Below are positions 29,401 to 32,400 of a stretch of 64,000 nucleotides of DNA, in pieces. Where the stretch lies: assembly GCA_963834385.1 (NCBI GenBank), contig CAWIBO010000005.1, positions 192,001 to 256,000 of the forward strand. The letters run 5' to 3'. Position numbers: made by a program. The DNA comes from an uncultured Verrucomicrobiae bacterium (GTDB taxonomy: Bacteria; Verrucomicrobiota; Verrucomicrobiia; Chthoniobacterales; UBA10450). The stretch's first letter is position 1; each line of letters begins with the position of its first letter.

Positions 29401-32400
29401 GCACACCTTCCTGGTGCACAACGGGAAGAATTTTACCTCCGTTTTCGTGACCGAGAACATGGTCGGTCACAAGCTGGGTGAATTTTCGCCTACCCGAATC
29501 TTCAAGAAGCATGGTTCGCACACCGCGAAGGTGACGAAATAAGTGAAATTTTTAGCTGCGACGTTCGGTGGCCGGGTCAAACCGGCGGCCGGTCAGCGCG
29601 GCTTTGGGTTGGCAGTGTTGGGCTGCGTAGCGCTGGCTTGCGGGCCGGCGGCAGAGGGAAACAGTTCTTTGTCAGATTCAAATCTTGAAACGACCGAAGC
29701 GAAAGTGACGGCCGAGATGCTATTTTCGCAGAACGAGGCGTTGCGTCAGCAACTCTCGCTCGAGCGGGAATCGGTCCGGACCCTGACCTCCAGTCTGGCG
29801 GAGTCGAATGCGGAGGCGGAAGTGTTCCGCCGCAAGTATGCCGATCTCAAGCTGCGGATGGAGGCGCTGGGGCTGGACGCGGCCAGCGCAGACCGGGCCA
29901 AGCTGGAGCAGCGATTGCTCCACGCGGTCAACGACCTGCAACTGGCGGTGAAGGAACGCGAACAGTTTCGCGACCAGATGCTGCGGCTGACCGAGGCCAT
30001 CTTTCATTACCTGCAGACCGCGCAGGGTGGAGGAGATGCCCAGGCCCGCATGGACGTGGAGGCGCAGTTGCGCGCCACGAACGAGCTGGTCGGCGGCGGC
30101 GGGCCCGTGCCCGTCTCGGCCCAGCCGAGCCTGCTCGACGGCATCGTCATCACGGTGAAGGAGGAATGGTCGCTTGTCGTGGGAAACCTCGGCGAGCAGC
30201 AGGGCGTCAAAGTCGGCATGCCGTTCCAGGTGCTGCGGGGCGAGAAACTGATCGCGCTCGTGCGCGTGGTGGATGTGCGCGAGAAAATCTGCGGCGCGGT
30301 TGTTCAGGAAATGAGTTCGGCGAAGGAAAAAATACAGGTGGGCGATCGGCTCCAGGTCGATGCCCGCTCCAATTTGAGTTTAAAATAAATGGAAGTTCGA
30401 TCGATATACAGGTTTGCGCAGATCTCGCCCTTCAAGGCGCGCGAGGTCACGCGTGAGATCCAGGGTCTGCCCGTGGCAGCCGCGCTGGATCTCGTGGCCT
30501 TCAGCCCGAAAAAGGCCGCGACCCTCGTGGGCAAGACGCTCAAGAGCGCCGTGGCCAATGCCGAGAACAACGCCAACCTCAAGGTCGAAGGCCTCGTGGT
30601 GAAGGAAGCCGTCGTCGGCGAAGGCCCGACCATGAAGCGCATGATGACGCGCGCCCGCGGCAGCGGCAGCGGCATATTCGAAGCGGACCAGCCACATCCG
30701 CATCATTTTGACGGACGAGATCGAGATTGAAACCCGGGCCAGCCGCAAGGCGGAGAAGAAGAAGAGCCGCCAGAGTCGGCGCCAAAGCCGCGCCGGAAGC
30801 GGCGGCCGAAGGAGCCGGCGCCGAAACGGGCCGCAACAAAACGAAGGCAAAGAAATAAGTTATGGGACAAAAAGTTAATCCGATCGGATTTCGTCTCGCG
30901 GTGAACCGCGACTGGCGTTCGCGCTGGTATGCCTCGCCGCAGGAGATGCCCGCCTTTCTGCACAGCGACATCGAGATTCGCACCTACGTGAAGAGAAAGC
31001 TCCAGTTCGCCGCGGTCGCGAAGATCGTCATCGAGCGCGCCTGGAACAGCATTCGCGTCACCATTTCCACCGCCCGCCCGGGCATCGTCATCGGCCGCAA
31101 AGGCGCGGAGATCGAGAAGATGACCGAGGAGATCTCGCGCATGTCCAGGGGCAAGCAGGTCAAGATCGACATCCAGGAAATCAAGACGCCGGAGCTCGAC
31201 GCCCAGCTCGTGGCGGAGAACGTCGCCCTCCAGATCGAGCGCCGCATCTCCTTCCGCCGCGCCATGAAGAAGGCGGTGCAGACCACCATGGATTTCGGTG
31301 CCGCACGGCATCCGGATCCGCTGCGCCGGCCGCCTCGGCGGCGCGGAAATTTCGCCGCGCGGAATGGTATCGCGAGGGCAAGATCCCGCTCCACACCCTG
31401 CGCAGCCGATCGATTACGGTTTCGCCGAGGCCAACACCGTTTACGGCAAGATCGGCGTGAAATGCTGGATCTGCAAAAAGGAGGAGGCCCGCGAGTCGAG
31501 CCGGCCGGCGCCTTCGCTGCCGCCCCCGCCGCGCTCCCGCCACCGCTGAAGCCTGATTTTAAGGAGATACTGACATGCCATTGATGCCCAAACGCGTGAA
31601 GTACCGCAAGACCCAGCGCGGCAGCCGCGCAGGGAACGGCTTCACGCAATCTCCGGATCGACTTCGGCGAATTCGGTCTGCAGACGCTGGAGCGCGCCTG
31701 GATCACCAACACCCAGATCGAAGCCGCCCGTGTCGCGCTCACCCGCAACATGAAGCGCAAAGGCAAGCTCTGGATCCGCATTTTCCCCGACAAGTCCGTC
31801 ACCTCGCGTCCGCCGGAAACCCGCATGGGCAAGGGCAAGGGCCAGCCGGAATATTGGGTCGCCACCGTTCGCCCCGGCAACATCCTGTTCGAACTCGACG
31901 GCGTGCCGGAGTCGGTCGCCCGCGAGTCGCTGCGCCTCGCCGCCGAACAAGCTGCCGGTCCGCACCAAGTTCCTGACGCGCCACCACGTCGCCGCCTGAA
32001 ATCGCATGAAGATCAAAGAAATCGCTGAACTAAGCGTCGACGAACTGCGGACGCGCGAAACGCGATCTGCGCCAGGAGAGCGCTTCATCTCCGCCTCCAG
32101 CAGCAGAGCGGCCAGCTCGAAAAGCCGAGCCTGCTCCGCGCTCCTCCGCCGCGAAGTGGCGCGGGTCGAGACCATCCTCACCCAGAAACAGCGCGCGACC
32201 GAGCGTCGCGGCGCAAGAACTAATTTATGAGCCGAAACCATCGACAGCACCGCCCCGGCGACCACCGCGGAAACCACCGCGCGCGGTTCGCGCAAGACCC
32301 GCGTCGGCGAAGTCGTCTCCAACAAGATGAACAAGACCATCGTGGTCGAGACCATGACCCGCGTGCCGCACCCGAAGTTCGGCAAGATCATCAAGCAGAT

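Follow-up and report, generated by a model that had tools for sequence, protein, structure and literature searches.

A non-ribosomal gene, here called X, occupies the interval between rpsS and rplV in the S10 operon of the window, the 64,000-nt stretch of DNA that was analyzed, and its product is very probably exported and not ribosomal. Known non-ribosomal passengers of ribosomal operons include secY, adk, map and infA in the spc operon and rpoA in the alpha operon. By a narrow balance, we favor the explanation that X is a passenger gene of the S10 operon for an exported protein, which would serve as a periplasmic scaffold or spacer matched to growth. All positions given below without a contig name are positions within the window.

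X is an uninterrupted ORF on the plus strand, with the gene for L2 upstream and that for S3 downstream. The rpsS gene for ribosomal protein S19 (29264..29542, plus strand; Pfam Ribosomal_S19, E 1.8e-37) lies upstream of X and ends with the stop codon TAA at 29540-29542, and the rplV gene for ribosomal protein L22 (30389..30730, plus strand; Pfam Ribosomal_L22, E 2.2e-28) begins one base past the X stop codon at 30386-30388. The first-pass annotation had placed a non-ribosomal gene of 223 aa (P0002) at 29717..30388. The gene is real and its stop codon stands, but its start at ATG 29717 does not. The open frame reaches back to GTG 29543, which we propose as the start codon, and homolog alignments extend well upstream of ATG 29717. 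The full open frame (29543..30388, plus strand) encodes 281 aa plus stop, of which the earlier, 5'-truncated call represents 79%, and it fills the entire interval: GTG 29543 abuts the rpsS stop and the ATG of rplV abuts the X stop, leaving 0 nt at either junction. A putative Shine-Dalgarno sequence, AAGGTG, was read off the sequence at 29528..29533 on the plus strand, 9 nt ahead of GTG 29543. Homologs of 254-291 aa span 89-100% of the 281-aa form, their alignments beginning at about residue 20, and the conserved segment GCVTLARGLAAEGNSSLSES also lies upstream of ATG 29717. Of the codons that had changed, those with synonymous-only changes made up 22% upstream of ATG 29717 versus 47-53% in the stalk and barrel described below. 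This region evolves fast, which fits a signal peptide and is not proof of coding. The 3' end of rplV is frameshifted in the assembly: positions 4-91 of the 104 in the L22 profile were matched, and the C-terminal text of L22 resumes in a different frame at 30708-30878.

The position of X is conserved across genomes. Matches were found in 63 of 80 other Chthoniobacterales genomes (E<=1e-5), representing 15 of 16 families, and each of the 39 other genomes for which loci were retrieved had the order L2-S19-X-L22-S3. Among 40 further, weaker matches, 37 were directly upstream of L22. In all, X immediately preceded rplV at 76 of the 79 loci examined from 78 other genomes, and these loci span Chthoniobacterales, Akkermansia, Opitutia, where the forms are short and consist of a signal peptide plus barrel, and Victivallis. 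The length of the X product ranged from 110 to 350 aa, and the gap between the X stop and rplV in other genomes ranged from 2 to 119 nt for in-frame ORFs. Where the operon is split, as in Victivallis and others, X remains with rplV. It is with rplV, and not with rpsS, that the linkage is conserved, and the earlier description of X as an old, fixed member of the S10 operon is retained for its position and amended on this point. The range beyond Chthoniobacterales is also wider than had been claimed, reaching Opitutia and Lentisphaerota. The distribution is also patchier than had been claimed: several lineages have no X, among them one entire Chthoniobacterales family. S19 and L22 were adjacent in all four checked Chthoniobacterales genomes that gave no X match and in 8 of 10 such genomes of the class. 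X has been lost in free-living lineages with genomes of 4-6 Mb and is dispensable in some lineages. An exact-sequence look-up of three Akkermansia X translations among the cluster members found none. X is also distinct from the PVC 'signature protein', another and small protein named CT421.2 (PMC2474590, PMC3444138). The public sequencing runs listed for the organism of the window were four DNA runs, all from a single soil-metagenome study and with small shares, and included no RNA run.

Residues 1-38 of X (29543..29656, plus strand) resemble a signal peptide, with a basic n-region, the hydrophobic stretch GFGLAVLGCVALACG and then PAA ahead of EGNSS; a cleavage site and a possible lipobox (VLGC) are predicted. 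Similar features were found across the family. A hydrophobic 12-mer (mean KD >= 1.8) was present within the first 45 aa of 91 of the 105 full-length representatives of 50% clusters and, by the same criterion, over the remaining ~200 residues of 17 of them; the measure also marks a stretch in L22 (KD 2.06). A small-x-small motif followed the 12-mer in 91 of the 105 representatives and K/R preceded it in 83, and on inspection the n-h-c layouts close with ASA, AQA or ARA. In locus ORFs drawn from the breadth of the phylum, too, an uncharged hydrophobic segment lay close to the N-terminus in 59 of 62 (these ORF counts leave out loci L053, L079 and L083, which the position counts include). The N-terminus of Akkermansia X has no basic n-region. 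Heuristically, the family has the layout of a Sec signal peptide, i.e., a basic n-region, a hydrophobic h-region and a small-x-small site, the call being based on hydrophobicity measures and inspection. With this signal peptide in the longer frame, X is predicted to be exported from the cytoplasm; the signal peptide had been missed earlier because the gene call was 5'-truncated. The predicted mature protein is acidic, with a pI of 5.3 for X of the window and a median of 5.6 for the 105 representatives, versus 10.3-10.5 for S19, L22, L2 and S3.

An AlphaFold2 model of X from 74 sequences, improved over the earlier one (mean pLDDT 84.8), has three helices followed by six strands, reproducing the three-helix coiled coil and six-stranded barrel of the MreC/FlgT_C kind that had been predicted before. 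The helices, at residues 42-108, 115-160 and 166-183, make up a stalk (residues 42-183; 29666..30091, plus strand), within which the consensus of the 74 sequences reveals the conserved motif SLAxANxEAExFRR...LRxEALG. The strands form a beta-barrel (residues 197-275; 30131..30367, plus strand), which is delimited by the model, by conservation and by fold matches. The barrel is the conserved core of the family, with G217, G225 and R246 invariant in alignment A2, and the stalk varies between lineages and is wholly missing in the Opitutia forms.

The top fold match of the barrel was the C-terminal domain of FlgT (8z5n chain 5), with 75 residues aligned at an rmsd of 1.8 A and 20% identity (Z 10.9), and Foldseek concurred (8z5n, E 8.8e-5; 3w1e, E 1.1e-4). 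Only residues 191-274 of X align to FlgT. Other matches were the crown barrels of F1/V1 ATPases (Z 9.0-9.5), HerA (8.6), MreC (7.1-8.1) and Gar1 (7.0). Barrels of the FlgT_C, MreC and ATPase-crown type are contact modules that form rings or filaments in solved structures. Similar to FlgT (PF16538; 3w1e, 8z5n) and the FlgT-like domains of TsaP (3jc8), X possesses the barrel fold and is predicted to be periplasmic. Different from FlgT, however, X lacks the N and M domains and has a helical stalk that FlgT does not, and different from TsaP it lacks a LysM domain. Moreover, there are no flagellar or pilus genes near X, whose neighbors are ribosomal. Profile searches agree with the earlier statement that X has no Pfam or NCBIfam family: nothing reached the cut-off, the best match being FlgT_C at 18.1 bits (cut-off 27; E 0.0038). 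FlgT_C was the sole recurring Pfam family among the 74 members, matching 19 of them at E<=0.01 (best 7.5e-5), none of which was shown at the 27-bit cut-off. MreC (PF04085) did not match X of the window at E<=1 and matched one of the 74 members (E 0.0043). The best PDB profile match was EnvC (8tzk chain E; E 2.2e-4), a periplasmic coiled-coil protein, as X is predicted to be; X, however, has no LytM domain, and the match is limited to the signal peptide and first coiled coil, a similarity of low information. The remaining PDB profile matches were generic coiled coils. The clusters returned by the ESM Atlas were all unnamed ones of Verrucomicrobiota; among named families, ATG16 (0.81) and FlgT_C (0.80) came closest, both below the trusted level.

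The membrane-anchored paralog reported earlier to lie elsewhere in the genome was also recovered, as an ORF of 262 aa that begins with a hydrophobic anchor (G000:C2:38856-39470, minus strand). A Pfam scan around five paralog loci (L002, L073, L077, L078 and L107) found no shared neighbor; NYN-domain genes were beside two of the five and a heptosyltransferase gene beside one.

Published data sets cover two genes at the position of X. The family includes Amuc_0299 of Akkermansia muciniphila, and VSP_RS22560 of Verrucomicrobium spinosum probably belongs to it, both assigned by position, species or genus, and length and not by their own sequences. Amuc_0299 stands between the genes for L22 (Amuc_0298) and S19 (Amuc_0300) (supplement of PMC11480725). 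Its log counts in 21 RNA samples correlated with those of L2 (r = 0.998), S3 (0.997) and L22 (0.990), and its mid/end log2 fold change was 2.07, compared with 2.05 for L22 and 2.09 for L2 (PMC11480725). The protein was detected in all 14 proteome samples, with an iBAQ of 1.3-2.6% of that of S19 (PMC11480725), and this low value could in part reflect loss of periplasmic protein in sample preparation. VSP_RS22560, whose tag lies between rpsS and rplV, had an insertion index of 0.00127, or 1 insertion in 785 bp, in a TraDIS library with a mean of one insertion per 12 bp, and was scored essential (PMC12283558 and its supplement). This score may stem from polar effects on rplV and on the essential genes that follow it, a point unaddressed in that study. 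Amuc_0298 to Amuc_0300 are unmentioned in the text and one supplement of the outer-membrane proteome paper PMC4960237, and our literature search found no paper discussing the X family, including Amuc_0299 and the V. spinosum gene.

Similar to secY, adk, map, infA and rpoA, X lies on the same strand as the ribosomal genes, is packed among them without space for its own promoter, and has RNA that co-varies with theirs, the RNA data being from Akkermansia. Similar to secY in particular, its product is predicted to belong to the envelope or to export. Different from these passengers, however, X is at the rpsS-rplV junction within the S10 operon, is restricted to one phylum-level lineage and belongs to no curated family. 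In the explanation that we favor, X mRNA would rise and fall with ribosome synthesis because X is transcribed together with the adjacent ribosomal genes, and X would be translated far below its neighbors. The non-ribosomal passenger would be synthesized with a Sec-type signal peptide, exported and then cleaved, and in the family of the window the Cys within the hydrophobic stretch might permit a lipoprotein form. The mature protein would be acidic and would combine an antiparallel helical stalk that varies by lineage with a conserved six-stranded barrel of the FlgT_C/MreC/ATPase-crown kind. This barrel may oligomerize or bind an envelope partner, and the protein may act as a periplasmic scaffold or spacer required in proportion to growth. 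The scaffold role taken by itself is tentative, and we rate it somewhat below an even chance. A bolder version, to which we give a small but real chance, is that X is a growth-essential, lineage-defining, ring- or lattice-forming periplasmic barrel protein of Verrucomicrobiota and Lentisphaerota, whose location ahead of rplV hard-wires its supply to ribosome synthesis and couples envelope building to translational capacity within a single operon. If so, the TraDIS call in V. spinosum would be a real requirement and not polarity, and the lineages without X would have replaced it.

The place of X beside rplV could instead be explained if its product were a cytoplasmic factor acting on the ribosome, either an assembly factor or an accessory ribosomal protein. 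The fixed position in the S10 operon, the co-variation of RNA with ribosomal genes in Akkermansia and the essential score in V. spinosum are all consistent with such a factor, and RNA-binding proteins such as Gar1 have small barrels of related topology. A ribosomal protein, however, would be expected to be basic, cytoplasmic and near-stoichiometric with the others, whereas X has an acidic mature pI, keeps its N-terminal hydrophobic signal across the family and, in Akkermansia, amounts to about 2% of S19 by iBAQ. The loss of X from free-living lineages with sizable genomes and the Opitutia forms entirely without the stalk also argue against a ribosomal factor, which we consider very improbable; the link to the ribosome implied by the first-pass annotation is not supported. 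X also calls to mind the secretion monitors SecM, MifM and VemP, since it encodes a predicted exported protein just ahead of the gene for L22, which forms part of the exit tunnel. In that case, export-dependent arrest on X could adjust the translation of rplV and of the genes that follow. The X stop is flush with the rplV start in the window, and the linkage to rplV persists after the operon is split. The X C-terminus, however, is unconserved and has no common arrest motif adjoining the stop, the distance to rplV varies widely in other genomes, and rplV and the genes downstream do not encode export factors. A folded product with a strongly conserved barrel that accumulates stably is likewise unlike a monitor, and we find this explanation scarcely probable at all.

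Two further alternatives place X in the envelope. X and MreC (PF04085; 2j5u, 2qf4, 6zlv, 7eft) share a layout of hydrophobic N-terminus, coiled coil and, by prediction for X, extracytoplasmic barrel of similar topology, so that X might be a morphogenetic protein binding and positioning a peptidoglycan synthase; the single member touched by the Pfam MreC model and the canonical peptidoglycan of V. spinosum (PMC12283558) are consistent with this. However, X has one barrel where MreC has two, X of the window does not match the MreC model, the FlgT and ATPase barrels outscore MreC, cell-wall genes are absent nearby, and a genuine MreC is encoded elsewhere in the genome (G000:C3:105195-105641; PF04085, E 1.1e-41). 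Such a role is therefore unlikely. At least in the family of the window, X could also be a tether or spacer of the Braun-lipoprotein type, with a lipid anchor on an N-terminal Cys, a coiled-coil rod and a C-terminal Lys joined to peptidoglycan. All 16 close homologs end in an invariant L-K, most of them have the lipobox-like VLGC or LVGC in the hydrophobic stretch, and a relative is entered in one source as 'outer membrane murein-binding lipoprotein Lpp', an automatic name. The h-region, however, is very short, with just 5-8 hydrophobic residues ahead of the Cys, and the Cys is absent or displaced in 4 of the 16 close homologs and absent in most other lineages. Neither it nor the terminal Lys is kept beyond the family of the window, the ends being TND in Akkermansia and QNS in Opitutia, and about 2% of S19 is far from an Lpp-like abundance. 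We regard a tether of this type as quite unlikely, and the periplasmic passenger of the S10 operon as the preferred explanation.

Few gene orders in bacteria are as conserved as L2-S19-L22-S3. Because it is so conserved, a protein-coding insertion at the S19-L22 junction across a phylum-level lineage is rare, and X provides a clean, synapomorphy-like marker. Truncation of X by gene callers hides the export signal and invites the mistaken reading of the gene as ribosome-linked. The family extends to the gut bacterium A. muciniphila, in which Amuc_0299 RNA is at the levels of ribosomal genes. The X product most likely works in the cell envelope and not on the ribosome, and our leading conjecture is a periplasmic scaffold whose production keeps pace with growth. 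Should X prove truly essential, it would point to a still undescribed envelope function peculiar to these bacteria.

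The reading frame of g02298, the gene inserted between rpsS (S19) and rplV (L22), extends from GTG 29543 to TAA 30386-30388 on the plus strand, encodes 281 amino acid residues and fills the entire rpsS-rplV space. The TAA of rpsS (29264-29542, plus strand; Pfam E 1.8e-37) lies directly before the GTG, and the ATG of rplV (30389-30730, plus strand; Pfam E 2.2e-28) directly follows the g02298 stop codon. L2 is upstream and S3 downstream of these genes. An AAGGTG read from the sequence 9 nt 5' of GTG 29543 is a putative Shine-Dalgarno element. The first-pass annotation was right about the existence and the stop of the gene, but not about its start. 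Its call at ATG 29717 (223 residues) is the 3' four-fifths of a frame that is open from GTG 29543, and homologues are conserved upstream of ATG 29717. As also reported there, no Pfam or NCBIfam family was found for g02298 at cut-off, the top match being FlgT_C (18.1 bits versus a cut-off of 27).

The ribosomal protein genes around g02298 are nearly all broken by frameshifts in the assembly (28419-35236). In L2, a second frame takes over from about 28945; the C-terminus of L22 carries on in the frame of 30708-30878; the S3_C match covers only 27 of 83 profile positions; and long wrong-frame ORFs extend to 35236. The 843-nt g02298 frame is intact amid these genes. The pattern may reflect indel errors at homopolymer runs, of which lysine-rich genes hold many.

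A word-indexed search returned 4832 matching proteins at E≤0.001, and the 120 matches listed were mostly 254–291 residues long, covering 89–100% of the 281-residue form. Alignment of 16 listed homologues revealed conservation upstream of ATG 29717, with the consensus GCVTLARGLAAEGNSSLSES, and the matches in Chthoniobacterales genomes began at query residues about 13–40 in most genomes. When 1.84 billion cluster representatives were searched exhaustively, 781 proteins matched at E≤0.001, 99 of them at E≤1e-30. Most of the 105 representatives that were 240–300 residues long among the best 150 of these 781 matches began with a basic stretch that led into a hydrophobic run and closed on an ASA/AQA/ARA-type motif. 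By a hydrophobicity heuristic that also flags one stretch of L22, a 12-residue window with a mean Kyte-Doolittle value ≥1.8 was found in the first 45 residues of 91 of the 105 and in the remaining ~200 residues of only 17. A small-x-small motif followed the run in 91, and K/R preceded it in 83. The 11–14 representatives without the signal look like mis-called starts, as with g02298 in the window. The N-terminal region also evolves faster, as synonymous-only changes made up 22% of changed codons there versus 47–53% elsewhere in the gene; this fits a signal peptide and is no proof of coding. A short motif (NSSLSES, RSLTD or GSLTD) directly after the predicted cleavage site (window 29543-29680; A1, an alignment of homologues) occurred in many Chthoniobacterales and some other lineages and was absent in Akkermansia.

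The position between S19 and L22, claimed for the order and beyond, was borne out: 63 of 80 other Chthoniobacterales genomes matched the single g02298 protein as query at E≤1e-5, and all 39 other genomes with loci from this search and the profile search below had the order L2-S19-g02298-L22-S3 (tblastn). The wording "throughout the order" is too wide: matches occurred in 15 of 16 families, the family labeled f7 having them in 0 of 7 genomes and f14 in 2 of 6. Within the GTDB phylum, a profile of A2, an alignment of 74 diverse full-length members, matched 116 of 251 genomes, the window's own included, among them 21/21 in f20 (Akkermansia, including A. muciniphila), 18/19 in f18 (Coraliomargaritaceae/Opitutia), 6/20 in f19 and 11/40 in f29 (Victivallis; NCBI phylum Lentisphaerota). 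Of 40 fetched loci with weaker hits, 37 had the match directly upstream of L22; S19 was directly upstream in 29 of them, neither S19 nor L2 was found within 2.1–2.8 kb upstream in 7, and one was at a contig end. In 5 of the 7, S19 turned up either on a different contig or at a distance of 1.2 Mb. The break in split operons thus falls between rpsS and g02298, and g02298 still directly precedes rplV. Loci L049, L055, L058, L062, L081 and L082, found in Victivallis as well as in several further families of this phylum, carry g02298-rplV without rpsS, and rpsS is 1.2 Mb from g02298-rplV in one closed genome.

The remaining three weaker hits were paralogues located elsewhere. Membrane-anchored paralogues sharing the barrel were found at 1477-2265 (minus strand) of locus L002, from contig C2 of the window's own genome (G000:C2), and at 1910-3632 (plus strand) of L078. 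Beside the former are a YacP-like NYN gene and, at L002 1275-1580 on the minus strand, a small ORF resembling a lipoprotein. An NYN-domain gene also neighbours a tandem pair of paralogues in another genome.

In four matchless genomes of the order (two f7, one f14 and one 0.9-Mb f10), S19 and L22 were adjacent with gaps of 10–152 nt, and the A2 profile found nothing or only a weak match elsewhere. Among ten class-level genomes that the profile did not match, eight (5/5 from f19 plus single genomes from f22, f23 and f26) had S19-L22 gaps of 9–132 nt. The other two contained a divergent 112- or 118-residue signal-peptide-plus-barrel ORF that the profile had missed, and the profile counts are thus lower bounds. 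The gene has truly been lost several times. The rpsS-rplV gap of L106 (G009, the strongly reduced 0.9-Mb genome) is 152 nt and non-coding, versus 10–31 nt in other genomes without g02298, and may be a remnant of a lost g02298. In Planctopirus limnophila, rpsS and rplV have consecutive tags, Plim_0481 and Plim_0482 (PMC12283558, supplement file 10), so no gene lies between them in that planctomycete.

AlphaFold2 on A2 (mean pLDDT 84.8, pTM 0.44) gave helices at residues 42–108, 115–160 and 166–183, then six strands within residues 200–272, in agreement with the helices-then-barrel fold of FlgT/MreC kind proposed before. Among 48,161 PDB representatives, the top match of the barrel (191–277) was 8z5n, the FlgT C-terminal domain as part of the LPHT ring of Vibrio (Z 10.9, rmsd 1.8 Å, 75 residues, 20% identity), followed by the crown barrels at the N-termini of F1/V1/G1 ATPases (Z 9.0–9.5), HerA (8.6), EscN and FliI (8.1–8.3) and MreC (7.1–8.1). 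Foldseek matched the same families, and the helical part had generic fold matches only. FlgT_C was also the sole recurrent Pfam family (19 of 74 members at E≤0.01, best 7.5e-5, cut-off reached by none shown), and Pfam MreC matched one of the 74. The best PDB sequence-profile match, EnvC (E 2.2e-4), spanned no more than the signal peptide plus the first coiled coil. MreC itself is ruled out as the identity of g02298, because a true MreC (E 1.1e-41) is encoded elsewhere in the genome. In translated ORFs, with three wrong-frame ORFs left out of the counts, the barrel was the constant part and the stalk differed in length. The stalk is wholly missing in Opitutia and some other lineages, whose 111–130-residue forms comprise a signal peptide, a short linker and the barrel.

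All source names of listed homologues were "hypothetical" or an automatic coiled-coil label. The Verrucomicrobiaceae-type homologues P0392 and P0393 carry the precomputed Pfam accession PF26666.1, with no such match at E≤1 in local Pfam. Full-text literature searches, which covered freely accessible articles and few supplements, found no paper that mentions the gene or an rpsS-rplV insertion. Data were found in supplements of PMC11480725 and PMC12283558, neither of which discusses the gene. In A. muciniphila, a "hypothetical protein", Amuc_0299 (PMC11480725; AMUC_RS01705, UniProt B2UMT5, supplement file 1), lies between L22 (Amuc_0298) and S19 (Amuc_0300); position, taxon and length make it a probable member of the family. 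Across 21 RNA samples, its log counts correlated with those of L2 (r 0.998), S3 (0.997), L22 (0.990) and S19 (0.80), and its mid- versus end-phase log2 change was 2.07 (L22 2.05, L2 2.09, S3 1.76, S19 2.59) (PMC11480725). The protein was quantified in 14/14 samples, with iBAQ at 1.3–2.6% (median 1.8%) of S19 (PMC11480725). In a TraDIS study of Verrucomicrobium spinosum, VSP_RS22560, between rplV (VSP_RS22555) and rpsS (VSP_RS22565), was called essential with an insertion index of 0.0012739, i.e., 1 insertion in 785 bp against a library average of one per 12 bp (PMC12283558). It is likewise a probable member by position, taxon and length, the implied 786 bp matching the 261 residues of homologues from Verrucomicrobium sp. 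and Phragmitibacter. Polarity on essential downstream genes, a point that PMC12283558 does not take up, is an obvious alternative explanation of this call.

The ribosome link implied in the first-pass annotation was not supported. The g02298 product is acidic, with a mature pI of 5.3 (median 5.6 over the 105 representatives; neighbours >10), and carries a predicted export signal, and in Akkermansia the protein is about fifty-fold scarcer than S19 despite RNA at the operon level. Thus, g02298 is most likely a passenger of the operon and not a ribosomal component, and the same observations count against a cytoplasmic ribosome factor, a rival that would accord with its place in the operon. A secretion monitor acting on rplV, an unlikely reading, would agree with the export signal and the position before rplV, also kept in split operons. 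An Lpp-like tether is a rival for the window's own family, where the 16-homologue alignment shows a Cys within the hydrophobic run (VLGC/LVGC) and an invariant L-K at the protein end; neither is kept outside that family in the translated ORFs and alignment. An MreC-like partner of cell-wall synthases would draw on the barrel, for which FlgT gave the higher Z.

In solved structures, this type of barrel is a ring- or filament-forming contact module, as in FlgT of the H ring, the ATPase crowns and MreC, and a periplasmic scaffold is therefore favoured among these readings, although we hold it only tentatively and rate it at best somewhat below an even chance. The textbook passenger gene secY in the spc operon is the closest parallel. 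If g02298 encodes a periplasmic scaffold, the supply of that protein would track growth.
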